Below are positions 10,968-28,500 of a stretch of 34,296 nt of DNA, one piece after another. This DNA is from Reclinomonas americana ATCC 50394 (Eukaryota). The position numbers were made by a program, and so were the translations under genes. Location of the stretch: assembly GCA_048213135.1 (NCBI GenBank), contig PS015370.1:16686-50981 (forward strand), read 5' to 3'. Positions within the stretch are counted from its first letter, which is position 1. Every line of letters begins with the position of its first letter. The notes beneath the pieces were generated by a model. That model ran no database searches, was not told the origin of the DNA, and worked only from the letters and a program-made list of their open reading frames with translations.

Positions 10968-11584
10968 TCACTTGGTCTCCTCCTGGAGGGTGGGAGCAGG
11001 AAGTGAGGTCATGGTCAGCGATGTTGTGCTGCATGAGTCGCACCTCTACATCCCAGCCGTCGTCTCTCAGCTCCTGAATGAGTTCCGCGGCGCGCTGTTT
11101 GGGCAGGTGAGAAGGGAGGGTGAAGGGGAAGGGAGAAGAGGGGAAGGGAGGGGAATGGGAAAGGGAAGGGAGGGGAAGGGGAAAGGGAAGGAGAAGAGGA
11201 AAGGGAAGGAGAAGAAGAAAAGGAAGGCAGGCAAGGGAAGGTAAGAGACGAGAGAGTTCTGCAGACAGAGACAGGCACAGAGGGAGAGAAGGGAGAGTGA
11301 CGCAACGTCATCGGCAGGTGATGAGTGTGATTCTGCAGGCTCCGCATCTCCATAACGCGACCGATAGGCAAAGAAGAGTGCAGTGAGGGAGCCCACCAGG
11401 AGGAGCACAGCACGTGCGCCACGCTGTACGTGAGAGACAGAGACGCACACACAAATGCAGAGGGTGAGACAAGGCGACAAGAGGCAATGCATTCTGGATG
11501 TGCATGTGCAAAGACCTTGGTGACTTGGCGCACAATACCCATCGCCTCCTCAAAGTTCTTGTCGGGTATGGGTGCACTGCTCAT
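10968..11584 (-). CDS. ~83 aa four-exon single-pass membrane microprotein of unknown function
   Basis: Three phase-0 GT-AG introns join MSSAPIPDKNFEEAMGIVRQVTK | RGARAVLLLVGSLTALFFAYRSRYGDAEPAESHSSPADD | RAAELIQELRDDGWDVE | EETK-stop. One hydrophobic segment (AVLLLVGSLTALFFAY). Confidence 0.6.
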
Positions 11585-11750
11585 CTCCCCTGACGCCACA
11601 ACTGAAGACACAAGCACACGAGAGACACAAAGAGACAGGACTTTTTTTACTAATCGGAGCCTCGTCGTCACCTGGCACCACTCTCCAACCGCGACGATAC
11701 AAAGCCTGCACAACCACAAGCAACATGTCAGTCAGCTACTTTCCCCTGCT

Positions 11751-13011
11751 CTATTTGCTCATGTGCTTGTGGAGCGCACCTGTGAGCTCGGCCACTTGTC
11801 GACGTTCCTCTTCTATCTTGACGCGCAGCTTGGCCTGTCGTCGCTCCTCCCGTGCCTTTTTGCGTGCCCGCTCCTCTCGTTCTCGACTGCGTGAGGTGCG
11901 GCAGTGAGCAACGAAGGCGAGGGCATAAATGGAACTGCGAGCGCAGACGACGCAACAGCTGCGCGATAACGACACGAGCTTGTTTCAGCTTTTTCGCGGC
12001 GGGCTTGATCTGCTCCGGTTGTGCCATGTACTGAATGCGCTCGGCGCCCTCGGCAAGCACACGATCGACCTCGTCGAGACGCGCCTCGTGCTCGTCGACA
12101 CGCGCGCCCACCAATTGTCGCAGCGTGACGCCCGACGCGGAGGCAGCCAGTGCCGCCCGCAGTGCCGCCAACGCAATAAGCATGGGATGGAAGAGGAACT
12201 GAGCGTCGGTGGCCAGCGACGTGCGCACTGCGGTCTTGGCACGCTCCCAGGTGCTGGCCGATACGCGCTGCGCCACATCCTTGCACCGAATCCCATCCAG
12301 GAAGCGATACGGATGATGAAAGTGCAAGTGGAAGAGCGTGCCGGCGGCCACAGTCAGCTCCATGGCCAGCACATCATCCATGGAGATACGCTCGTCGGAG
12401 ATCTCCGACATGCGCTGCACCAGATCGCGCACCGTGACCGCATACAGCTCCTCGGCCTTGCAGGCCAGATACAGACAGGCGACAGTGACTAGCACGGGGT
12501 CGTGCTCGGCCACCGAGTTGCGAATGTAGAATCGCTTGAAGAGAGACATGGCTGAGGCCTCGACGACCAGTGGCAGGTGCAAGCGCACGGCCAAGTCGGG
12601 CATCTTGGCCAGGAAGTGATGCTGCAGCACCAGCTCTTCGTCCACAGTCAACCAGTTGCGCTGGAGGGTGGTTAGCGCGCTCTTGCGCTTCTTCTCGCCA
12701 CCAGAGGACTGTGGGAGGGGAGGAGAGGAGGAGAAGAGTGAGGACAAGTCAAATGCCAGTGTGCGTGATCATCATCTCCTGTCACACACCTCCGCTGCGG
12801 CCGCTGCCTCCTCATCCTCCGCCCGCGCCAGCTCCACCAGGCGCGTCTTGACGGCCTCCAGTGCCTCCTCTCGCCACAGCCTCAACGCGTCCACGTCACT
12901 CACCATCCAGTGACGCGCCTGACTGCTGTCGTCGAAGAAGGCATCACCTCCTCCTCCTTGTCCTCCTCCTCCTCCAGATGCCACACCACTGCTGCTGCCG
13001 CCTTCACTCAT
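11751..13011 (-). CDS. CCNH: Cyclin H-like cyclin (CAK/TFIIH CDK7 partner), 3 exons
   Basis: N-terminal FDDSSQARHW resembles the cyclin H 'SSQxRxW' motif. Cyclin box LTVDEE...ASAMSLFKRFYIRNSVAEHDPVLVTVACLYLACKAEE, then FHLHFHHPYRFLDG and TDAQFLFHPMLIALAAL. Intron 11956-11887 joins a charged C-terminus ending HKHMSK-stop. Confidence 0.85.
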
Positions 13012-14016: not shown

Positions 14017-16548
14017 AAGTCTCTCGTTGTCTCCCTTGCTCTCGTGCTTCATCCCTTCTCGATAGACAAGTCTCTCTCTCTCACACTCTCTCTCCCTCTT
14101 CTCCTCACTCTTCTCTGACTGTCTCTCTCTCTCGCTCACACACGCTGACCCCCCTCTCAGCTGCAAGAGACAAAAGGCATGTGCGAGTATGCTCTGTATG
14201 TCAAAGGTCTGTGCCTATGTTCCTCCCTTCCCTCACTGGTCAGCTGTGTGTAACCTTCATTCTCTCCACCACTCGTCAGCTCTGATCAGCAGGCAGCGTG
14301 GCTCGATTCAAGAGTCTCTGGAGCTTTTCCGCTCCGCCACCATTCTCAACCCGCACAATGTCAGCAACTTGAAACAAGTCGCTCGATCACTGTTGCGCGC
14401 TCTGCTTTGGTTCATGTGCTTTGCTGGCAAGTGGCTTACGTGCGTGTGTGTGTGTGTGCGCAGTCATCTGCTGGGCAGGCACAAGAACGCGATTGATGTG
14501 TACGACGAGGCGCAACGCTTGGTCGAGGAGGATTGGGTGAGTTGTCCAGGAAGAGGGAGAAAGAGAGAGCCATGCGTCTCTGCTTCCTGACCCCCTTCCC
14601 TTCTCCCAGGAAATCTGGCACAACAAGGGCGTGTGCCACATGTACTTGAAGAACTTTGACCAGGCCATCGACGCCTTCCAGTGCGCCAACGCCATTGCGC
14701 GACACGATGCCACCTTTATGCAGCTGGCCAAGGTCTACACAATGCAAGACGACATTCCGGCGGCCATTGAGACGCTGGAGGAGGCACTCGAGTTCTCGCC
14801 CGAGAACCCCGAGATTCTCACCACGCTCGGCATTCTGCACTTGCAAGTTGGCGAGAATCAAAAGGCGTTTGACAACCTAGGCGCGGCTCTCACGCAGGAT
14901 CCGAAGAACCCCAAGGTACACGAGACTCTCTCATTTTCAATATGACCGCTGCTCACCGCGCTCTGCCAGACCATTCTCGCCGCCGGCTCGATCATCCAAG
15001 ACCACAACGAAATGGATGTGGCGCTGAGCAAGTACCGTGTGGCCGCCAAGGAGACACCAAACTCGGCGCAGCTGTGGAACAACATTGGCATGTGCTTCTT
15101 TGGCAAGCAGAATTATGTAGCAGTTGAGGCGATGGGAGGGAAGGGGATGGGAGAAAGATGGGCTGGCGCTCACTGCAGTGTTGGTATCGCAGGCTATTTC
15201 ATGTCTGAAGAGGGCGCTGTATCTGGCGCCGTTCGAGTGGATCATTGCGTACAATCTCGGGTTGGTGCACTTGAATACGGGCCAGTTGCGTTGCTGGGTT
15301 TTTGTGATGCAGTCATTTGCGTGTATTGTTGTTTTGTGCTTTGTCATGCTTGTGGAGCGGTCTCTCTCTCTCTCTCTCTCTCCTCNNNNNNNNNNNNNNN
15401 NNNNNNNNNNNNNNNNNNNNNNNNNNNNNNNNNNNNNNNNNNNNNNNNNNNNNNNNNNNNNNNNNNNNNNNNNNNNNNNNNNNNNNNNNNNNNNNNNNNN
15501 NNNNNNNNNNNNNNNNNNNNNNNNNNNNNNNNNNNNNNNNNNNNNNNNNNNNNNNNNNNNNNNNNNNNNNNNNNNNNNNNNNNNNNNNNNNNNNNNNNNN
15601 NNNNNNNNNNNNNNNNNNNNNNNNNNNNNNNNNNNNNNNNNNNNNNNNNNNNNNNNNNNNNNNNNNNNNNNNNNNNNNNNNNNNNNNNNNNNNNNNNNNN
15701 NNNNNNNNNNNNNNNNNNNNNNNNNNNNNNNNNNNNNNNNNNNNNNNNNNNNNNNNNNNNNNNNNNNNNNNNNNNNNNNNNCTCTCTCTCTCTCTCTCTC
15801 TCCTCCCCATCTCGTGACGCAGTGTGTTGTTCTTGTGCTCTGTCGCTGTTGTGGTGCAGTTTCTCTCTTTCTTTTCTCCCGTCGTGTGACTCTGTGTGTT
15901 GTTCTTGTGCTCTGTGGTTGTTGTGACCAGTCGCTTGGGTGTCCGTCTTGTGACCCAGTGTGTTGTTTTTATACTTTGTGGTTCTTCATTTGCTTTCTAC
16001 TCTATGGTTTTTGTGACTTGTTTTGTGTACACTCCTCCCCCATTTATGTATCCGTCTCCATCCTGCTTGCCTTTTCTCCTCTTCTCCCTTTCCATTTGCT
16101 TCCTCTCGCATTCCCCTCCCCTCTCCCTCTCCCTCACCCTTCCCTCACCCTCCCCAGATTCGCCTCGGCCTTCCACTACTTCTCCGCCTCCATCAACCTG
16201 AAGCGCGACTTTGCCAGCGCCTACATGTACCTGGCCATCACTCTGTCGCGGCTGGACGACTTTGAGAATGCCTGCCACGCCTACGAGAAGGCGATTGAGA
16301 TGGAGAGGTGTGCTGCAATCTCCGTTTCCGACCACGCTGCCATGGTCTCACTCTTCCCCCCTATTGGTAGCGACCATTTGTTTGAGCTCAACTACGCCGT
16401 CACGTTGTACAACCACGGCGACTCGAGGAATGCACGCAAGCACTTCCAGCAGTTCCAGCGCCTGTTCGAGGACCTGGATGAGGCAGCCAAGCAGGAGGAT
16501 CCCGACGTGCTCACCATCTCCAAGCGTCTCAGCGATTTGTTGAAGTGA
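13695..16548 (+). CDS. BBS4: Bardet-Biedl syndrome 4 protein (BBSome TPR subunit), 9 exons, with the assembly gap inside intron 7
   Basis: Spliced peptide has BBS4-like segments [108 protein letters not shown] and [13 protein letters not shown]. All 8 introns are GT-AG and keep the frame. Confidence 0.95.
13981..14012 (+). repeat. (CT)n microsatellite in BBS4 intron 1
   Basis: Direct tctc... run within an AG/CT-rich expanded intron (13881-14160). Confidence 0.9.
15386..15781. other. Assembly gap (N run) flanked on both sides by (CT)n, inside a BBS4 intron
   Basis: 396 N. CT repeats at 15361-15385 and 15782-15802. Confidence 0.98.
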
Positions 16549-16928: not shown

Positions 16929-19630
16929 ATGTCATCCAACAAGAAGGGTGTACCCAAGGCTGCTGCCGCAGCCAATGCTGTCGGTGTGTCCCTCTCAGCG
17001 ACCTCTTCACACCCCATTCTCTCTCTCTCCCTCACACATTCTCCTCCTCTCAGAAACCGAGAACACTCGCCGTCTGGAGCAAGCACGAGCCGCCTTCCAA
17101 CACGCACAGGCGGCAGTGAGCCAGGCCCAGCTGGGCGACGCACAAGTGATCCTCAGTCAGTGCGTGGACGAGTTCACAGCGCTGCTTGGACGCCAACACG
17201 GCGACACCATGCAAGCCATGTACACGTTGTCGATGGTGCTCACCAACGTCGGCCGCATGGACGAAGCGCTGGCACTCCTCCAGGAGCTCGTCGAACTCGC
17301 CGAGCGCATGTTTGGCTCGGAGCACGTGAACGTCTCCGCTGCGAAGCTGGAGTACGAGAAGGTGGGCCGCGCCATGGCGCAGCGCGAGGCCGAATCGCTG
17401 CGCGCACAGGTCGCACAGATGCGGGAGGAGCTCCGACTCAAGGAGCTGTTGCTGGACGGCTCAGAGCGCATTCCCGACCCGTTGGCAGTCCCGCTTGGTG
17501 CGTTTCCACGAGTTTTGTCGTGTTTCTCATTTTGTCCTGTCATCCACCTCACACTCACTGTTCGGTGGTGCCAACCTGCAGTGGACACGGATGAGCTGCG
17601 TGAACATCGCCGGATCATCTCGCAGAGTGTGCACGAGCTGCTGCCGTCGACGATTCTGGCCGAGCGCGGCGATCCGGATGCCGGATCGCAACTCGAGCAA
17701 TCGGCCGTGTTTGCCGACATTCCCGACGCAGTCCGCGTCGCCAGCCGCGGCCTGAGCGAGTTCCGCGATCCGTCGGGCACGCCTCCGCCCGCTCCCGACG
17801 CTCCCTACCACAAGGTAGTGCGCGCTCATGCCAACACACTGATTCGCATCGTGGAGGACCTGCCGAGCGATGCGCAGGATCGTGTGCGACAGATTGGCAT
17901 GCAGACGCCGGTCACGCAGCATGCCGTCAGCGCTGTGGTCAGCCTCCGGGATCAGGTCAGCAAGGTGTTCAAGGAGGTTGCTGATGCAGCGCAGGTCGTG
18001 TATGGTGTGTCGGTGACGGAGGAGGCGGCCGCTGTGGCGCGTCGTGAGGCCGAGGACGGCAATGATCGCGACACTCACGATCGCGACCTGCGCCAAGTCA
18101 AGGCCATTAGCCGTGCAAGCGATCGCCTCGACAGCTCGGTGCACGCCTGCAATCAGACGCAGTCGCTGGTGGACGAGAGAAGACGCGGACAGAGCGAGAC
18201 GGAGCGCGAACTGCTCTGGAACGACCTTTCTGTCAAGTGCGACGAAACGCTGGCCAAGCTGCGCGGCATGATTGACGAGATGCCGCGCAAGCTGGCTCGT
18301 GCGCAGCAGGAGACCAACTACACCAAGCAGGGCATTCTGCATGAGCGTCAAGAGCTTCTCAACCGCCTGCGCGTCAACGTGGTGCGCCTCGATGAGTGCG
18401 AGCGCGTGGAGCGACGGCTTGCCCGCGAGCGTCAGCAGCTGGACGAGATTCTTGCGCGACTGATCAGGCGCGCCGACGCGGTGGAGATGGTGCAGACTGA
18501 AGTGGTGCGATGGGCGCCGGCGCATCTGCGCAAGATGCGAGAGGCGGCGGCGAAGGAGCTTCGGGCGTGGCAGAACAGTGCCCGCGAGGCTGAGAGCTTT
18601 GCCACCCGACGGGAATTCGGTCTGCAGCGCGGCAGGGAGGAGCTGGAGCTGCAAGTCAAGCGATATGTGCGGTTCACGGAGGTTGCCGACCGCACTGCCG
18701 CCGACAACAACAAGTGGCGTGTGTTGAGGTTGCCCAGCAAAGTGGACCAGCAGCGCGAGGAGGAGGAGCGCAGTCAGGCGTTCGCCGCGGCCGCCGAGGC
18801 CAGCAAGCTGCTCGAGCTGTGCACACGATTCTCGCTCAAGTGGGAGGACTGCTCGGAGGCCGACGCTCGCCTGCACTACCGCCGTGTGATGCTGGACGCT
18901 GCGGTCGACGCCTGCAAGGGGCACCCGCCACCGGCCGTTCTCGCGGATTGTTGCGTCCCCACCCCCATTAATATTCATCGTGCAAGAAGCACCGACACTG
19001 ACCTGCTGTCACACATACACAGTGGGGCTGTCTGATCTGCAAGACGACGTGGCGCTGTCGATCCAGTCGCTGGACTCGCTCCGACTGCACGCGTCGCCGC
19101 AGCCGATGAACGTTCGACCCAACGCCGCACAGGCACGCTTCCAGTTGCACGAGACCCTCAATTCCGTCCTGGGCAAGGAGCATGCGCCGGTGACGGTGCG
19201 CTTCTCGCCACAGCAGAACACACTGACTCTGGAGTTTGAGGTGCCGGTGCTGTCGACCAGCGCCCGCGATTCGCCCACCTCCATGGAGGCCCGAGCTGCG
19301 GCGACCACGGCGCGTGCAGTCAAGGCCGTGCAGCGCGGACTGCGCGCCGAGCTTGCCGATCGCCTGCCCCCGGTGGAGCCCGTCATTGAGCGACGCGACC
19401 ACGCCATTGTGGCCATCATCGCCGAACTCGGCTCGGCGGACGCACTGGTGGCGCTGGCGCTCCGCCGCGACCACTTGTCGCAGGCCATTAGCCAGGCACA
19501 GCGACGATTCGCCGACGAGGATATCAGCAGCTTGCTGACCAAGACCTCGGCCACGGCTGCCGCAGGAGCAGCCGACGACTGGGCCGCGAGCAGCCACTCC
19601 ACTGTCGTGTCGTCCGTGGGCCGACTCTGA
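16929..19630 (+). CDS. Uncharacterised protein with N-terminal TPR-like helices (kinesin-light-chain/TPR_12 style) and long coiled coils, 4 exons
   Basis: ATG at 16929 (MSSNKKGVPK). Introns at ~16983-17053, ~17498-17581 and 18950-19022 keep the frame. 'LLGRQHGDTMQAMYTLSMVLTNVGRMDEALALLQELVELAERMFGSEHVNV' is TPR_10/12-like. E/R/Q/L-rich heptads follow downstream. Confidence 0.75.
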
Positions 19631-19843: not shown

Positions 19844-20809
19844 ATGAAGTTCGGTGTGCAGCTGAGCCTGCACTCGCTGACGAAATGGCGCAACAACTAT
19901 GTGCGATACAAGCGACTGAAGGACAAGATCCACGCGGTGGTCGCAGCTCACATTGCCACCGGGTCTGACTCTCTCTTTGTCTCCCCTTCCCTCACACACA
20001 CACACAACGCTCACTTTGCGCTCATCAGTGTGGCCATTGACTTGCTGCCTGAGGAAAAGTCGTTTGAGGAGAGCCTGCACTCGGATCTTCGGTTCGCATC
20101 ACACTTGTCTGTGTGCGCTCTCTCTGTCGTGCTCACACTGTGCACGTAGGGCGGTGAACAACTTTGTGGCGCTGCAAAAGGCGGCACTGGAGAGCGATCT
20201 GTTTGCGTTTGAGCAACGTTTGCGCGTGTCGTTGGCGAATGGATCGTCGGATCGCCATCGACGCCCCGAAGACGAGGAAGAAGAGGAGCGTGAGATTACA
20301 CTGGAGGAGGTGTCGCGACTGCGTGCGCTGTGTGTGGACTTTGTGCAGCTGCGACACTTTGTGCAGCTCAACGCCGAAGGCTTTCGAAAGGTGCTGAAGA
20401 AGCATCGGAAGCACACGCAGTATGCGCTCGATCCGCGACTCGATCCCGCCACGGCCTATCGACAGCCGTTTGCCGATCCCGAGTCTCTGGCGTGGTTTGG
20501 TTCGCTCACTTGCTGTGCACTGTCATACCCTCCCCTCCCCTAGAAAACCTACCTCGTGGCTGATCCCTCGGTTCGCAGCTCGTCGACTGCAGCACATTCG
20601 CTCGCTCTTCCAGCAACGTGTCAGCGACGCTGTGAGCGAGACCGAGCTGTTCAAGCAACTGATGGAGATCACGTTGGAGGTGCCGCCGGTGGTGCGTCGG
20701 CAGCGATCGATCTGGCGTCGATACTCGTTTCGCGGCTCGTTGGTCCCGCTGGCGCTGTGCCTGTATCAAAAGGTGAGCATTACGGGAGAGCTCAACTCGC
20801 ACTGTCTCT

Positions 20810-20855
<46 letters not shown>

Positions 20856-23800
20856 CAGTTCACGGAGACATTCGTCAAGGCAATCACACTGGCGACGGTG
20901 GTCTCCTTTGCCTGGAAGACGGAGACTCAGGGCAACGCGGAGGCACTGCTGATGCCGCCGGGCGGCATCTCGCGATTCGCCTTTATCGGCTGCCTGTTTG
21001 GCCTGGTGTCGTTGTTCCGCGCCGCTGCACTGGTGTTTGCGGCGTACTTTGCTCACGATGCGCGACTCGTCGGTTGGATCTGGGGCACGGTGCGGGCGCT
21101 CAGCTTGTGGGCTCTCGCACAACTGTCGGTGTGTGCACTCTGTGTCTCGGTGGCTGTGTGTCTGCACCCCCTCGTTGAGTTGTGCGCCCGCGCAGCAATC
21201 TCCTTGGCTGTGGAAATTGGTCTTCCTCCTGCTCCTCCTCGAACCCTTTGCCGGTGTGATGACCTGCGCGGCCGCGTCGCGCTTGTTGTGGGGCTCACGT
21301 CGCTTGTGGAAAGGTGTATTCTCCCCGCTCCGCTGTCATTTCTTTGTTCCCCTGTCTCCCTCTCACGCGTTTCATGCAGCCGACGTGAGCCGACTGTACG
21401 AGCGCATGGCCATGATTGATGCCAACGGCGCCACCGGCAACGGCAAGAGCGATGAGACACCCATTTCGCGTGGCACCTACAGCCTGTTGTCGTTCGCCAT
21501 GTCGGTGTTGGGCGTGCTTGGCGCCTTTGTGATTGCGCGCTACGGTTTCGGCATGTACGCGTGCTTGCTGGTGGCGGCGGCGTTGGCGTTTGTGGAGGTG
21601 CCGCTGTTCTCGCTCTCGTCGCGCCCCAGCCGGGATCTGCGCTCGCCCGACCCGATTGTCACCTACCACATGTCGCCGGCGTCGCTTCTCTCGCAACACC
21701 ACACGATGCGATGGACGATGATTGTGCTGCTGGCCTCGTCGCCGGCGTACCAGGCCTCACCAACCGCCGTCCTACTGGTGTGTGCCGGCCTCTCGCTGGC
21801 CGTGCGAATCGGCGAGTTCGTCGGCAAACTCTTGTCGTATTCCACGGGCGCACGGTTCGGCACATGCGCGTGGTGTCCGCCTCCTCTTTTTCGCTTGGAC
21901 TCACGACGGTGCCTCTCACAGCTTCTCACTGAGTCGCGTGTCGCTGTATGCCACCTCGAGCTTTGCGCTCTTCGCCTTGCTGCCGTTTGTCTCCGAGTAC
22001 GCCGACATGATGCGTGCTCCATGGTGGATGCTACAATTCCAGTTGCGCCTTCCCGTTGCCGACGTCCATGTCGTCCACTCTCGCTCTCTCTCATCGTGGC
22101 TGTGTGCGCAGACTGCCGGCGCCACTGTTTGGCGATGTACGACTCCTTCTCAGCTTTGTTATTCTGCTGACATTTAGCGTGTTCAACTACCTCGCCCGCA
22201 CCACCTCGGCAGCGCTGCGGCACAGCGCCGAGTCTCACGCCCCGTCCACACTCGGTGGCCCATTGGATACGCGGCTGTGGCTGTTCAAAGTCGTCAAGAG
22301 CTTCTTCTCAGTGCTCGCCGGCGTGTTTGTGGAGGTGACACACTCGCTCACTTTTGCTTGTCGATCACTCACACACTCACTAACCTTGCGTGCTCGACAG
22401 AGACCATTCACCAACGTTCTCAATCTGTCGTTCATGTCGCTGGCGCTTGGTATCGTCACGTCGGTGCTCGGTGTGGTCGAGGCGTGGTCTGCACCGAAAA
22501 TCACCAACGCCTCGGCCGACGCGGAGATGGCAGAGCTGGGTTTCGAACGGCGCGGTCGTTTCATTGTGGTCGAGGGGCTTGATGGTGCGTTTTTTCCCTC
22601 TTCATATACCCCCAACTGTGTGTGGATGAATTCCTCACCACTGCACACTGATGCGAGCAGGATCGGGCAAGTCGACGCAGTTGGCCATGCTGGAGACCAA
22701 ACTGCGACTGGCGGGTTTCGATGTGGTGACCACCGGGTGGAACTCGTCGTCGATGATGGCCGAGTCCATCAAGGCTTCGAAGCGTCTGCGTCACATGCGG
22801 CGTCGCACGTTTGCGCTCAGTCAGGCCACCGACTTGTCGGAGCAGTTGTACGACGTGGTGCTGCCGGCGCTGAGGTTCGTTCCCCTGCTGCTGCTGCTGC
22901 ATGCTGTTGCACGGACCACTTTGTGTGTACTCACGCGTGGCTGCTTGCAGTGCTGGCAAGATTGTTCTCTCCGACCGCTACTTTTACACGAGCCTGGCGC
23001 GCGACACCGTGCGCGGCAGCGACCGCGTGTGGCTGGAGAATTTGTACGCCAACATGATTCAGCCGGATCTCGTCATGTACTTCCGCATCCCGGTGGAGAC
23101 CGCCATCTCTCGCGTGGTCAAGCGGCGCATGGCCAGCAGTGCGCACGCGGTCGGCGAGTCCGACGACGACGAGGACGACTTGTCGGACGACGACCTGCGG
23201 GGATCACTGACCGACAGCCTACCGGTCGAATATCTCGAGTCGCGTCCACGCTCGCGACAGCCCCCGTTTGTCAGCAAGGTTCTCCCCTCTCCCCTCTCCA
23301 CGGCCACCAGCGCAGTCGCACCGTCTCCCTCTCGCCGCTCACTGCCACCGACGGGCGTGGTGGAGGACGGCGAGGGCGAAGATGTCGATGTGCGGCGCCG
23401 CTCGCACTCATCGGCACTGGGTGTGGTCACCAGCAGTGGCAGCGACAGCCACAGCAGCAGTGGACTCGGCCATGGTCTGGCGCACGCGGCTGACGACAAG
23501 GACGACGGCGAGCCGCAGTTGTCGTTCTACGAGGCTGGTCTCGATCTCCATCTCGAGGATGATCCGCTAAAGGTACGAGGAACCACAGCTCTGTGTGCGC
23601 GGCGTTGCGCTCACTGTGTGTGGTGTTGCGCGCACAGAATTTTATCTCGTTCCAGACGCTGGTGTCGGACCAGTATGACATTCTGGCTGATGGTGCGTGT
23701 GTTTGTATTGCTGTGCTTGTTGTGCTGACGCATTGCCACCAACCATTGTTCTTCTCTGCACCGTTTTGCAGCGTACGATTTCAAAGTGTTTGACGCCACG

Positions 23801-24961
23801 CAGGCCATGGAGTTGCAGCACGAGATCGTGATGCATCATGTCAACAGGATCCTCGTGCATGGTCCGCCCGTGCGCACCAACGTGCGAAACGCCTTCGACA
23901 AGAACCCCGAAGACGATCCGCCGAAGATGCGCTCGAACTATCTGCGCGGGCACGCCTGGAGCGGTCTTCATTTCTACTTTCGCAACATGCACCAGGTGAG
24001 CGCTGCGAGCGTGAGTGACTGTTCTTCCCGAGCCGTCCATCTAAGCCACGCCAACAGACCATGCTGGAGCGCACGGAGGAACTGATGGATCTCGGCCCGA
24101 TGCCTCGCGTGTTCTTGCACGGAAATCCACACATTGACAACTTTGCCAAGGTTATTTCTCGAGGTCGATACTGTTCCGCAGGGAATGCCCTAACCCCGCT
24201 CACGTGTGCAGGGCGTGGCCGGCTCTGCATTGTTGGACTTTGATCGCTCCAAGTTCGGTCCATACGCCTGGGATCTGCTGCGCCTGATGGTGTCGCTCTC
24301 CATCCGCTCGAAGAGCGCTTCAACGCACCTGTTGCACTGGTCGCTCGTGCGTGCCGTGCAGGAGGGCTACTTTTGGGGCTTCCTACATCCCGATATGCCT
24401 CTCCGCGACATGCAAAAGTTGTCGGTTTGTGTGCTGCACGATCGCCTCTTTGCCGCGTTTCTCCATGCTAATTTCGCGCATAGGTGGCTCGCCCGTTGCC
24501 CGAGGAGGAGACGACGAATGCGTACCTTGCCGCCAATCGTGGCTGGGCCATGGAGATGCGTGAGAATCAGCTGCCGGTGGACGACGAGAATGTGCAGACC
24601 CTGGTGCGCTTGTACGCCGAGTCGCGTGGCGAACCGAGACTGCTTTCCGAGTTTCGTCATCTGTTGCTCCTCTCCTCCAACCAGCGAGCTCAACGTCGGG
24701 TTGCACGAAACACCCCTTCTCATACGCAGCTACCGCATCGAAGAAGCCGGTCGTGGTTTCGGGTCCATGGCCGTTCGCGATCGATACTTGGTGGTGTTGG
24801 CGCCCACCGCCGCCGCCGCTTCCTCGGATCGCCTGTTCCTCGACATCAAGGAGACTCGACGCGACCCCGACACGCGCTACTTTACCAATCCGTTCGACCA
24901 CAATGGCAAGCGAATGATCGCAGCTGGCAAGCTGTACGCTCCGAGCTGGGTTGAACGGGAG

Positions 24962-25035
<74 letters not shown>

Positions 25036-25450
25036 ATGAGGTGCAATTCGTGTATTCACGACTCATCGTGCAGGGGTTTGCCACGCTGGGCGGTGTCGAG
25101 TATCACATTCGACAGATACCGCCACAGACAATCAAGCTGAAAGGACTGTTGAACCTGGCCGACGCGCGTGACTTTGCGTACACGGCGTCCACTCAGCTCG
25201 GTCGAGGTCATCGCCTCTCGCTGCAGCCAGCCTGGTCGCCGCGTGATTTGCTGGCCCACCTGGAAGAGTTGCGACAGTGTTGCTCTTCTTGTCCTCAGGT
25301 GCGCTTGCACCCTCAACCGATCTCTCTCCGTGCAGCAATCTGCCGACCATCATCGATGTGGCTAATCAGTTGCGACAAGAAATCACTGGAGCGTACTGGC
25401 GCTACCGCGCGAAGTGCGACGTTGCCGAACGTAACTTTAACAACAAATAA
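19844..25450 (+). CDS. Multidomain protein: SPX - multi-pass membrane domain - thymidylate-kinase-fold P-loop kinase - DUF2252-like protein-kinase-like domain (~20 exons, ~1,400 aa)
   Basis: SPX: MKFG..W...YVRYKRLK, DLRAVNNFV, LRHFVQLNAEGFRKVLKKHRK. Many hydrophobic helices at ~20720-22490. TMK fold: GRFIVVEGLDGSGKSTQ (split by intron 22585-22660), IVLSDRYFYTSLARD, QPDLVMYFRIPVE, FYEAGLDL. DUF2252-like: LRGHAWSGLHFYF, HGNPHIDNFAK, DFD.SKFGPYAWDLLRLMVSL, GFGSMAVRDRYLV, FLDIKE. 19 GT-AG introns give a stop-free frame to TAA at 25448-25450. Confidence 0.8.
20814..20852 (+). repeat. (CT)n microsatellite forming an intron polypyrimidine tract
   Basis: Direct CT run just before the 3' splice AG at 20857-20858. 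Confidence 0.9.
24966..25035 (+). repeat. Compound (GT)n(GA)n microsatellite in an intron of the SPX fusion gene
   Basis: About 25 GT units followed by about 10 GA units directly after donor GTGAGT at 24962. Confidence 0.92.
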
Positions 25451-25501: not shown

Positions 25502-28500
25502 TTACTCATTTGCATTGTCGTTCTCCGTGAGACCCAGCGATTTGAAGCATTGCATCACGTGCCGCACGCGGAGCAAATTCTCACGGCAGCGTCCCAGCCG
25601 GTCGTTGAATTGCTGATGCACGATGCGCTCCAGCTCATCGCGATCGGCGGCCGCGAGGTCCTTGACGCGCACATAGCCGGCATTGTGGAACCACGAGAGG
25701 AGGCGGAGTACGTAATCGTCACTGTTTCGCCGCCCGACCAGTGGAGTGTCGATCAAGAGCGACGACTTCCACAGGCGCACGCTGGCGACCACCGTCGGTT
25801 TTACCACCGGGTACCACCGACGGCGTCGAATGCACACGGCCGCCGGTAGAGCCTCTGGCCTCCTGGTCGGCAAGTACTGCTCCTGTCGCCCGGTGACAGT
25901 GATAGACTGCAGTGCCGGTGCGCACGCGACCAGTCCGCTCAACGCGTCGTCCACGTGGTGCACATCTGTGGTGGATCAAGAACCATATGAGCAACAGTAT
26001 CCATGCGCGCTCTCTCTCTCTCTCTGCTGTGGCAAACACAAACCAATGAAAACAATGCTCGTCAACAGCGGCAGGGTGCACACAGTTGGATCCAGCAAGC
26101 GCAATTCCATGGCATCCACCCGACGCAATGTCAGTTGACGCAGCGACGGCGCGCATGCAGCAATGGCCGACCGCAACGAGTGCGAATGACAGAGCTCCAC
26201 TGGAGAGCAACTGAACGTTAGAATAACAGTAACCAAGAGTGACGGCCGTGTCAGTGACACCTCACCTTCTGAAATCACCAAGTCTTCCACCGCCTGGCAC
26301 CGCTCAATGTGCACACCACCAATTGTGGCTCCGAGGAGAAGACAGTGAGCCACGGCCACTGACGGGTTCGCGGCACTCGGCAAAAGCGGGAGAGCGCGAC
26401 GAGGATCGACGCTGGCCGCACCGCAGCGGAGCGACATGAAGTGGAGCAGCGCCTCCCGGGCGCGCCGGCAACCCGCTCGCGTGTACAGACGTGCAGCAGG
26501 AGCAGGAACGGCAAAGTGATGGATACGATGCCGCGGTCTGGCTGGCAGGGGCAGAACATGGAGACCGTCGACGTCCTCATCAAACTCGGCGACCCAGTCC
26601 ACCGCAATGGCCGGTCCCACCTCGCCGGCATCGACTGGCAGCTGCAACAGGTCGACCACCAGTGGCGCCGGCCTTGGCTGGCGTCGATTACGCTCACGAA
26701 CCTCTTCTTCATCGGCATCGTCTTCCGCTGCCCTTGGTGCGCCATCCAGTAGGGCGGACAACTGGCTCGGAATGGTGTCACCTGCGGCGAATAAGACGAG
26801 TCAAACAAGTGCACAGCGCATCGCACTCACGCACTCACGCAACATTGTGCATCAATGCTACGCAGTGCAGCCAGCATCGCGTCAGGTAGGTACGTTCTGC
26901 AATACCCGAGCAGCACATCCAGAATGTCGTGCGATTCTCCCAGCACTGCAATGATGGTGGTCAGCAGATGATCACCAAGTTGCACTTCCTCTTTCCCCTC
27001 TCTCTGTCACTCACCAGGCTTGTCGAGATATCCCGGCAGCTGCACAAGCACACACGACGGATCGCCATTCATGCACGAAATCTTATACGAGTAACCCGGC
27101 AGCTGCTGATCGTCGTCATCTGCTGGTCCGAGCTCAAGCGCAATGCAGCACACTTGGCGGACCAGGCAATCGGCCAAGGCGCGGTACTTGTTGTGTGCCT
27201 CGTTGAGAGCATCGTCAAGCTGCAGAAGCACGAGGGGAGTGAGTGAGAGGCATGCAAGAGCAAGAGTTGAGGAGGAACATGGCAAACCAGCTTCAGCAAG
27301 GCGCGCACATGCCGGTACGTCAAAAACGCATGATGGACAATGCGCTGCAGTTGATTCGCCAGCACCGACGCCGCTCTGCTCTTCCCACTCGCCGTATGCT
27401 CCACCAGTTCTCCCACCACAACACGCGTTGCATGCACCCACTGTTCGCGGAACATGCGCAGGTCGATCATGAAGTTGCAGTCACCGCCGGCGATCCGCAT
27501 GACTGTTTCCTCCACTTGTTGTGCTGCGCGCACCATCATGATTCAACACTCCCGGCAACCAGTTGTGCGAGAGACAGACAGCTGCAAGAGGCGCGCACCA
27601 TGCTCCGCGGTCTTGCTGTAGAACGTCTCGAGTGCACTGACCACGGCAGGCGCAAACAGCACAATGCTGACGGCTTCGGTGAGATCTGCAGGTACACACG
27701 CGTGAGATGAAGGGTCAGGAGGGGGCGGGGGAGAGAGAAAGATGAACGCAACCTGGCGCAGCCCATATGTCGGTCTTGATGGTCAGTGTGCTGCCCTCCA
27801 GCTGTATCACCCACAGAGTTAGTCCACGTACGCAGAAAGAGGAAGGAGAGAGATAAAATCGCGGTACCTTGCAGGCACTGGCCAGCGGATGTTCATACGA
27901 GTGCTCGAGATGAATCTCCGAGACAGCTCGCAGTGTGCGCAAAATGTGGCGAGCAAGCAGGGCACGTAGCGAACGCTGCGCGCAACGAAATCAGGAGGAG
28001 ACAGAGAGTGTCCGGCACTGCACACGCAACTGTCAACTTCATAAACTTCTTGTCGTACCGCGAGGTGATGGCAAACTGCGTGCCGTACCACGACCGCAAG
28101 CTCGCTACCACATCCTCCACGGGCGACACATGCCGAGTAAACAAGTCGCACAACGCCATAGGCCGTGTGGGGTCGTCCGGCAACATATCGTCGAGAGCCT
28201 GTGTCACCGACGGCCAGTGCACAGTCATGCGCCAGCGATCTGTAATATCGTCCAGCATGGGTAGCAGATCAAAGTTGACCGGATTGATGGGCAGCTCCCG
28301 CATGCATCGCGGACTGATAAAGTGGTACTGAAGTTGTCGACGCAATTGCTGCAGTACATCATCGCCGCCACCACAATCATCAGCAACAAAAGCGTGCAAC
28401 CAAACAACACACAGATAACTCGCTTACCTGGGGAATGATACGCGACTGCAGCGCCAGTGCCGCAGCCTTGTCGTTCATCTCTTGCAAGCGTTGACGCAAC

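Follow-up and report, generated by a model that had tools for sequence, protein, structure and literature searches.

An SPX-headed, intron-rich gene of Reclinomonas americana predicted to join a membrane region to PPK3-like and DUF2252-like domains

The DNA considered here, which we call the window, is a stretch of 34,296 nucleotides from the eukaryote Reclinomonas americana ATCC 50394 (assembly GCA_048213135.1, contig PS015370.1, positions 16,686 to 50,981 of the forward strand); all coordinates below are counted from its first letter unless they belong to another locus. At 19844..25450 on the plus strand it carries a gene that, judged from homology, is an SPX-headed member of a family of fusions between a transporter, a PPK3-like kinase domain and a DUF2252-like domain, a family common to eukaryotes and Elusimicrobiota. 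What is new here is the SPX-headed, intron-rich eukaryotic form of this fusion. Our best reading of the predicted protein is an SPX-gated, membrane-bound polyphosphate or nucleotide phosphotransferase, to which we assign a probability of roughly 0.5. The gene and its four modules are listed below, with the evidence used to place each of them.

19844..25450, plus strand: whole coding region (splice search, homology-corrected model, periodicity of G+C at third codon positions (GC3), collinear tiling by hidden Markov models (HMMs))
19844..20646, plus strand: SPX domain with MKFG start, amino acids 1 to about 200, exons 1-4 (Pfam, PDB matches, blastp, jackhmmer)
20859..22511, plus strand: multi-pass membrane region, amino acids 243-640, exons 5-10 (hydropathy; position of the relatives' MFS_1)
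22539..23887, plus strand: thymidylate-kinase-fold (TMK-fold) domain of PPK3 (cPPK3-like) type, amino acids 650-1000, exons 10-14 (PDB matches, tree, motif alignment, HMM tiling)
23894..25411, plus strand: DUF2252-like, circularly permuted kinase-like domain, amino acids 1003-1365, exons 14-20 (Pfam, phmmer, family columns, motif survey)

Gene model

A first-pass annotation of the window had proposed one continuous spliced frame, free of stops and with 19 canonical introns, linking four modules. We rebuilt this frame independently of the earlier model with a splice search based on dynamic programming, in which all GT..AG introns of 40-140 nt were considered and codon-usage scoring was learned from one long neighbouring open reading frame (ORF). 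The window has a base composition of about 59% G+C and its introns are short. Starting from the ATG at 19844, which reads MKFG, the best path contained 19 introns, was free of stops and ended at 25450 with the TAA at 25448-25450; raising the permitted intron length to 400 nt made the search pass over exons, and that version was rejected. Four junctions (exon 11/12, the end of exon 13, the end of exon 14 and exon 18/19) were moved by comparison with relatives, with a rise of the alignment score to the Elusimicrobiota protein P0003 from 384 to 393 bits. The resulting model comprises 20 exons, separated by 19 introns that are all GT-AG and measure 58-127 nt each, and encodes 1377 amino acids.

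19844-19962, 20029-20091, 20150-20499, 20579-20772, 20859-21068, plus strand: exons 1-5
21196-21313, 21380-21833, 21922-22041, 22154-22334, 22401-22584, plus strand: exons 6-10
22661-22874, 22951-23572, 23638-23692, 23772-23995, 24058-24150, plus strand: exons 11-15
24212-24424, 24484-24662, 24730-24961, 25074-25267, 25336-25450, plus strand: exons 16-20

Coding periodicity is strong in the spliced sequence, where GC3 is 0.757 against 0.437 for the second codon position (GC2), and the two wrong frames contain 30 and 23 stops. GC3 lies at 0.62-0.85 across every exon, and at 0.74-0.84 in exons 5-9, the part of the gene without homology support. The splice junctions of exons 4-8 were placed by frame and composition only, and the joining of SPX to the membrane region relies on introns 3 and 4. 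Concerning the second half of the gene, HMMs of the relatives tile the ORF pieces of the window in strict order (hmmsearch): successive pieces match positions 16-88, 85-160, 164-187 and 207-234 of the kinase profile, and then positions 4-39, 39-74, 73-143, 147-199, 191-274 and 273-338 of the DUF2252-like profile. This tiling agrees with the rebuilt frame. Two of the module junctions fall within single exons and require no splicing at all:

22401..22584, plus strand: exon 10, from the last membrane helix to the start of the P-loop in one open frame (sequence, model, hmmsearch)
23772..23995, plus strand: exon 14, junction from the TMK-fold to the DUF2252-like domain in one open frame (ORF 23729-24082 matches TMK profile positions 207-234 and DUF2252 profile positions 4-39 by hmmsearch)

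When the spliced protein was compared with P0003, a single high-scoring segment pair (HSP) extended over exons 12-20 (model 929-1363, 6.5e-120). With another relative, P0106, a single ORF of 1297 amino acids on a contig of 3965 nt, blastp gave three collinear HSPs, namely SPX (3e-11), the last membrane helices together with the kinase (5e-48) and the DUF2252-like domain (3e-95). The strongest support for translation of the modules as a single protein comes from the SPX-headed relatives that carry them in a single ORF (among them P0106, and P0018 from Ancoracysta twista).

It might still be argued that two or three neighbouring genes have been wrongly joined, for instance an SPX-only or SPX-membrane gene and, downstream of it, a TMK-DUF2252 gene with its own start at an in-frame ATG just before the P-loop. 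Read-through of intron 3 does reach a stop after 14 codons, leaving a short SPX protein, and an in-frame Met lies about 10 codons ahead of the P-loop; besides, exons 4-8 are without homology support and the Ancoracysta relative exists without a membrane part. However, exons 10 and 14 each carry their junction in one open frame, no in-frame stop separates the modules, GC3 is uniform over all exons, and in P0106 (1297 amino acids), P0026 (1234) and P0042 (1231) the modules stand together in one ORF. We regard a false join as very improbable, and the first-pass observation that all four modules lie in one spliced frame is confirmed.

Two perfect microsatellites lie within introns of the gene: a (TC)20 at 20813-20852 in intron 4, and a (GT)27 at 24962-25016 in intron 18, the run beginning at the donor site of that intron.

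SPX domain

Pfam was run on raw, unspliced stop-to-stop ORF pieces, and on these it matched all three families that the first-pass annotation had suggested looking for (SPX, Thymidylate_kin and DUF2252). The N-terminal SPX piece matched PF03105 at 6.3e-6 over profile positions 1-38, with a score of 26.9 bits that falls just below the cut-off of 27.8 because introns split the domain; the C-terminal piece matched profile positions 305-331 at 9.8e-4. Exon 3 matches SPX crystal structures (5ijp at 6.2e-6, and also VTC4 and XPR1), including the helix with the K..KK..K pattern:

20379-20414, plus strand: lysine-rich SPX helix GFRKVLKKHRKH (aligned to the VTC4/5ijp helix)

The blastp match to P0106 mentioned above covers residues 1-136 of that protein, and a jackhmmer search started from the Ancoracysta SPX domain recovers the SPX of the window. 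In SPX domains the basic surface that binds inositol pyrophosphates is formed by Tyr and Lys residues of helix 2 together with clustered lysines on helix 4; the basic stretches present in the window are YVRYKRLKDKI and GFRKVLKKHRKH. With both ends of the Pfam profile and the crystal-structure matches in agreement, the SPX module that had been annotated at the head of the protein was recovered, and by homology the N-terminus belongs to the SPX domain family.

Kinase domain of PPK3 type

The PPK3 family was first described in 2024-2026. In Sulfolobus acidocaldarius PPK3 is a heteromeric polyphosphate kinase encoded by two tandem 'thymidylate kinase' genes, the catalytic Saci_2019 and the regulatory Saci_2020, and the abstract of the 2026 JBC paper reports the family from Crenarchaeota and a few bacteria (PMC12995831; here and below we follow those portions of its text that were available). 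In the window, Thymidylate_kin (PF02223) matched two ORF pieces, at 9.7e-4 and at 8.5e-7 (29.3 bits, cut-off 27). In searches against all PDB sequences at E<=0.01, exon 12 matched one distinct chain (2plr/4nzy/4rzx/5h70, 5.7e-12) and exon 11 matched the same single S. tokodaii chain (5h70, 1.2e-5), with no canonical thymidylate kinase among the matches of either exon at that threshold. The protein of 5h70, STK_15430, is a homologue of the PPK3 catalytic subunit, cPPK3 (PMC12995831). The Ancoracysta relative behaves in the same direction, scoring 125 bits on the 5h70 chain, while the canonical thymidylate kinase that it matches best reaches 63.5 bits.

The motifs of the window domain are as follows.

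22570-22584 and 22663-22677, plus strand: P-loop GLDG|SGKST, split by intron 10
22973-22981, plus strand: DRY motif (motif alignment)
23141..23518, plus strand: acidic, Ser-rich, low-complexity insert of about 125 amino acids in the kinase lid, exon 12 (alignment; gap from 794 to 929 between blastp HSPs)

The P-loop Lys (GLDGSGKST), the Arg of the DRY motif (SDRYFYT) and the lid arginines are all retained, and the window and the 5h70 chain have in common the motifs WNSS, TF.L..ATD, DRY.YT..ARD.VRG, YEAG.D and NF..FQ. At the position of the lid insert the relatives have 0-40 amino acids.

After the fusions themselves, the kinase domain is matched best among prokaryotes by TMK-like genes that stand in tandem pairs, in Nitrososphaerales, Thermoplasmata, Halobacteria, Chloroflexota and others; the first gene of a Nitrososphaerales pair matches the 5h70 chain at 4.5e-64. 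A maximum likelihood tree was computed from 121 domains and 217 columns, by a quick search with supports from the Shimodaira-Hasegawa-like approximate likelihood ratio test (SH-aLRT) only and no bootstraps. In this tree the TMK domains of the fusions form one clade (SH-aLRT 89), in which the eukaryote forms plus P0104 have a support of 76 and the 18 bacterial forms one of 84. The fusion clade is nested in a clade with the tandem-pair genes (SH-aLRT 93), and 47 of the 50 single thymidylate kinases fall outside the PPK3-like clade. From these comparisons we place the window domain in the PPK3 clade, apart from canonical thymidylate (dTMP) kinases. The first-pass annotation had connected the protein to polyphosphate through the fold that thymidylate kinase shares with PPK2; the polyphosphate link comes out strengthened, but it now goes through PPK3 membership, as indicated by PDB matches and tree, and not merely through the fold of PPK2.

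In the seven tandem TMK-like pairs that we aligned (L008-L032 set, e.g. L014 5968-7397), the second gene has the P-loop GSGR, with Lys replaced by Arg, and keeps DRY. The regulatory subunit of Sulfolobus is instead described as having lost the Arg of DRX (PMC12995831).

A different use of this domain would be nucleotide salvage by metabolic trapping, in which a nucleoside or nucleotide taken up by the transporter is phosphorylated first by one and then by the other of two domains, the DUF2252-like kinase and a true dTMP kinase domain, and SPX controls the spending of phosphate. The Pfam match to Thymidylate_kin fits this idea, and so does the NCBIfam equivalog model for dTMP kinase, TIGR00041, whose cut-off of 83.25 is exceeded by P0003 (97.8) and P0018 (104.2), with P0026 below it. 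The Elusimicrobiota relatives are moreover annotated 'dTMP kinase' by NCBI and JGI, and the weak structural neighbours of the DUF2252-like model (Z<=5.8, see below) are small-molecule kinases. On the other side, the only PDB chain matched by the window exons at E<=0.01 is that of the cPPK3 homologue, the tree groups the domain with PPK3-like pairs, and the gene neighbours and fusion partners of the relatives, described below, are polyphosphate and pyrophosphate enzymes, not salvage enzymes. PPK3 proteins, moreover, are reported not to conserve the residues that bind dTMP (PMC12995831). We consider salvage improbable.

DUF2252-like domain

DUF2252 is described as a protein-kinase-like family in which the N and C lobes are swapped (PMC9758233; bioRxiv 10.64898/2026.09.18.752743; both as far as their text was available). 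Exon 16 alone matches DUF2252 (PF10009) at 2e-6, with 27.5 bits versus a cut-off of 22.3, and by this match the C-terminal domain of the predicted protein is a DUF2252 member. It retains 17/17 invariant and 17/21 near-invariant family columns, from which we conclude that the domain is under selection. In Burkholderia, a DUF2252 protein that is not assigned to the subfamily described below is listed among those depleted when phosphate is limiting (PMC13700237), and this observation was set aside.

24118-24141, plus strand: catalytic-loop motif HGNPHIDN
24236-24244, plus strand: DFD motif

The subfamily to which it belongs is small, with 88 proteins at E<=1e-3 when the two largest DUF2252-like exons, joined in one frame, were searched exhaustively by phmmer against 1.84 billion representatives. 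It conserves the Gly-rich loop, the DIKE Lys, the DFD motif and the Asn and His of the catalytic loop, which reads HG[NS]PHxDN and is followed by DFDR[SA]; a conserved Asp stands four residues beyond the position after HG. The position right after HG we take to be the place of the catalytic Asp in the kinase fold (HxD/GD...N loop). A search of four genomes for canonical DUF2252 examples with which to compare the loop returned only the fusion genes themselves. Read in this way, the domain is predicted to have an intact nucleotide and metal site and an unusual or absent catalytic base.

Besides the fusions, the subfamily includes standalone genes (L084-L143, e.g. L134 3875-5724). Directly downstream of these, on the same strand, a permease of the TauE/SafE family was found in 32 of the 37 loci with at least 500 nt of downstream sequence, at a distance of at most 32 nt in 30 loci and below 200 nt in 32, so that the pair looks like a conserved two-gene unit. 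PPK1 adjoins the standalone gene in 2/60 metagenome loci. Neighbouring genes for a GHMP kinase and a phosphoribosyltransferase were seen in one close lineage only (at most 16/54 loci) and were set aside. There are also fusions of MFS to DUF2252 without the TMK domain (P0004, P0005, P0010, L132, L133, L135), and their existence makes the TMK-like domain look like an insert into an older pairing of transporter and DUF2252.

For a standalone DUF2252-like protein a structure was predicted with a mean local confidence (pLDDT) of 93. Foldseek gave 0 matches to this model at E<=1e-3; in VIA-align the highest Z was 5.8, and the neighbours comprised APH/choline-kinase-type small-molecule kinases along with folds that are unrelated to them. 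The absence of a clear structural neighbour is expected, because the fold is lobe-swapped.

Membrane region

Hydropathy indicates about 10-11 hydrophobic helices between SPX and the kinase, in agreement with the multi-pass region of the first-pass annotation. This description can be refined, since in the relatives the corresponding part is a transporter of the major facilitator superfamily (MFS), and by its position the window's own region is a candidate for one. Its last 100 amino acids or so align to the C-terminus of the MFS domain of P0106 (HSP 538-816/553-837, 5e-48), and the ESM Atlas, used on exon 7 as a lead only, listed no named cluster outside the families of the MFS clan (score 0.91).

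Relatives and their distribution

Among the 88 phmmer relatives, nine have a length of 1030-1276 amino acids. All eight of the long relatives tested by Pfam have Thymidylate_kin followed by DUF2252, and six of the eight have MFS_1 in front; most of the long relatives begin with a signal-peptide-like stretch rich in Ala and Pro. In a further ten relatives Pfam found both kinase-like domains in five and DUF2252 without Thymidylate_kin in the other five, three of which are MFS-DUF2252 proteins. When one genome per prokaryote species was scanned, full-length matches were present at 7 loci, five labelled Elusimicrobiota or Elusimicrobia and two simply 'bacterium', and the core MFS-TMK-DUF2252 without SPX occurs in dozens of Elusimicrobiota proteins.

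The SPX-headed form is much more restricted. In a jackhmmer search from the SPX domain of P0018, it was found in 5 of the 169 sequences compared, namely P0018, P0026, P0042, P0106 and the window model. In P0106 the Pfam domains are SPX (1-41), MFS_1 (249-605), Thymidylate_kin (681-816) and DUF2252 (from 955). P0018, an ORF from the EukProt transcriptome assembly of Ancoracysta twista, has SPX-TMK-DUF2252 without the membrane part and is collinear with the window protein. Word-based searches were of little help: exon 12 found no match among longer proteins, because even its closest relative is only about 55% identical, and the SPX-MFS half of P0106 found only itself. A protein assigned to Rotaria sordida by NCBI and UniRef (P0162, 1350 amino acids) has a TMK domain at 451-601 that is 45% identical to that of Ancoracysta, and it matches DUF2252 weakly; horizontal acquisition or contamination could account for it.

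We did not find the SPX-MFS-TMK-DUF2252 architecture described in the literature searched, which covered few subscription journals, and the main text of the PPK3 paper, as available, nowhere contains MFS, SPX, Elusimicrob or 'fused' (PMC12995831). The claim that no SPX protein carries a TMK-fold and a DUF2252 domain stands as far as the papers searched are concerned, but not for public protein sets, which contain four SPX-bearing relatives. The SPX form is rare (4 database proteins), and what is widespread is the core without SPX.

Gene neighbourhoods of the relatives

At 6 of the 7 Elusimicrobiota loci three genes follow one another on one strand, namely the fusion gene, a second MFS gene and PPK1; at the seventh, the sequence breaks off within the second MFS gene. 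The genomes concerned are close kin, with PPK1 identities of 75-86%, so that this linkage counts as little more than one observation. In an unrelated bacterium, L031, PPK1 lies directly upstream of a tandem TMK-like pair. Related TMK-like domains are also found fused to Ppx/GppA exopolyphosphatase (P0163), to the inorganic pyrophosphatase domain PF18823 (P0161) and to NUDIX (P0165).

The whole order in Elusimicrobiota (L001, L003-L007; e.g. L007 5476-13122) is RecQ on the minus strand and then, on one strand, MFS-TMK-DUF2252, the second MFS and PPK1. Three of the five loci with upstream sequence have a glycosyltransferase of MGDG-synthase type between RecQ and the fusion gene.

Proposed function

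In our best reading, SPX would do as it does in other SPX proteins and sense the phosphate status of the cell by way of inositol pyrophosphates, and it would gate a membrane-bound enzyme. The PPK3-like domain would move phosphate between ATP/ADP and polyphosphate, and the transporter domain may carry an anion (phosphate, polyphosphate or another) across the plasma membrane or that of an organelle. The DUF2252-like domain would act as a partner or regulator of transporter and kinase, possibly replacing the regulatory PPK3 subunit that is missing from the window.

Several observations weigh against this reading. The gene contains one TMK-like domain, and no second copy that could serve as regulatory PPK3 was found in the 34-kb window; PPK3 operons encode a catalytic and a regulatory subunit in all predicted cases but one (PMC12995831). 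From the alignment of tandem-pair genes we took 12 columns by which the two members of a pair can be told apart and 7 columns that are basic in the catalytic type only. At the 12 separating columns the window resembles the catalytic type in 6, the other type in 2 and neither in 4; it has K/R at 1 of the 7 basic columns, and its 'ADR' motif has Gln in place of Arg, which is also the state of the regulatory-type genes. The bacterial fusions are closer to the catalytic type, with 9/12 columns and a K/R majority at 4/7 basic columns. The scores above the TIGR00041 cut-off, given above, point in the same unfavourable direction. Concerning the membrane region, its pieces in the window have no Pfam match to MFS_1 at E<=1, and neither tblastn nor hmmsearch with filters off nor hhalign against the MFS of the relatives gave anything significant, save for the last helices by the P-loop. 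The MFS of the relatives in turn resembles drug/H+ antiporter families, its nearest models being H+ antiporter and Tap efflux ones, not known phosphate carriers. Finally, a pattern that left the residue after HG free found the DUF2252-like loop motif in 67 of 105 proteins surveyed, and the free position holds N 57 times, S 10 times and D never. Of the 'two different phosphotransfer domains' of the first-pass annotation, both were identified, but phosphotransfer itself is uncertain in each of them, given the Asn in place of the catalytic Asp in the one and the single basic column kept in the other.

The same observations could be read as those of a regulated anion transporter that is not an enzyme, in which two degenerate kinase-like domains sense nucleotide or polyphosphate and, with SPX, set the rate of transport. 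Such a protein would explain why the catalytic Asp is absent in 67/67 DUF2252-like proteins with the motif, and why the subfamily goes together with a permease almost without exception, be it as an MFS fusion or with TauE/SafE downstream (32/37 loci); the six MFS-DUF2252 proteins and loci without TMK listed above, and the loss of six of the seven catalytic-type basic columns and of the 'ADR' Arg in the window, would agree with it. Yet the TMK-like domain keeps its P-loop Lys, DRY Arg and lid arginines, and the DUF2252-like domain its Gly-rich loop, DIKE Lys, DFD and loop Asn and His, with all 17 invariant columns, which is unusual for a dead domain. We judge a pure transporter unlikely, while giving it serious consideration.

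The phosphotransferase reading can be made more specific. The protein may represent a second, VTC-independent, SPX-gated polyphosphate machine of eukaryotes, in which a PPK3-type kinase, of a kind also present in Elusimicrobiota and joined to a transporter, couples synthesis or use of polyphosphate to transport under the control of inositol pyrophosphates, and a DUF2252 domain lacking the Asp replaces the regulatory PPK3 subunit (rPPK3). In this detailed form we put it forward tentatively, as possible rather than probable; the coupling of synthesis to transport is something that we infer by analogy with VTC.

Comparison with known systems

With PPK3 the window protein has in common the TMK fold, the P-loop GxDGSGKS, DRY and the motifs of the 5h70 chain, as well as membership of the same clade and relatives that stand beside polyphosphate genes. 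It differs in being a single domain without regulatory subunit, placed behind SPX in a membrane protein and encoded by an intron-rich eukaryotic gene, and in its 125-aa lid insert and its 1/7 basic columns.

Vtc4 consists of SPX, a triphosphate-tunnel polyphosphate polymerase and 3 membrane helices. As in VTC, SPX here heads a membrane protein with a candidate polyphosphate-forming domain, and the SPX helices are homologous by PDB match. However, the candidate catalytic fold of the window is a P-loop kinase and not a tunnel-fold polymerase, and its membrane part, with about 10-12 helices, is of transporter type and not a channel with 3 helices per subunit. No window piece had a Pfam match to the VTC/CYTH tunnel domain at E<=1, and in the searches made similarity to Vtc4 was seen in SPX only.

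SPX-MFS phosphate transporters form the PHT5/VPT1 class of plants, and the order of SPX followed by an MFS-type membrane domain, seen by Pfam in the relative P0106, recalls them. Here, in contrast, two kinase-like domains stand behind the transporter, the MFS of the relatives is nearest to H+ antiporters and Tap efflux, and the window's own is not recognisable as MFS.

The closest counterparts are the Elusimicrobiota fusions (L001-L007, P0003 and others), which have the same core order, form the sister clade and are identical to the window at 53% of positions in the kinase and 47% in the DUF2252-like domain. They have an Ala/Pro-rich, signal-peptide-like N-terminus instead of SPX, lack introns and stand in an apparent operon with a second MFS and PPK1. 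As regards DUF2252 (PF10009) as a whole, the window scores above the Pfam cut-off and has the same conserved core, but it falls in the small subfamily with HG[NS]PHxDN and not the Asp-bearing catalytic loop.

Surroundings of the gene

Upstream, an ORF ends at 19630, 214 nt ahead of the ATG. Downstream, open frames of the minus strand at 25502-26800 begin about 50 nt past the stop, so that the two genes appear to lie tail to tail with very short spacing. Farther away, a run of N (assembly gap) at 15386-15782, flanked by (CT)n, lies inside or beside a gene with TPR repeats, and it explains why the composition profile seems to show a skewed block of low GC at 15001-16000. An imperfect tandem array of GGGAAG / 18-nt units at 11114-11227 stands beside a cyclin-like gene (Cyclin_N, minus strand, 11728-12768).

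Biological meaning

To our knowledge VTC is the only well-understood polyphosphate enzyme controlled by SPX, and the making and use of polyphosphate in eukaryotes beyond fungi, plants and trypanosomatids are, as far as we know, largely open. The predicted protein would bring together on one polypeptide SPX, a sensor of phosphate status, and a domain of the PPK3 family, along with a transporter and an atypical kinase-like domain. The dozens of Elusimicrobiota proteins publicly annotated as 'dTMP kinase' are probably misnamed. If the kinase domain is active, PPK3 would extend to eukaryotes, possibly even to a rotifer (P0162), and inositol-pyrophosphate signalling would be linked directly to a P-loop polyphosphate kinase. 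An active protein would also give one DUF2252 subfamily its first functional context, in the transport of phosphate and anions, and, should the proposed reading be true, these fusions would be a candidate class for polyphosphate metabolism in lineages without VTC.

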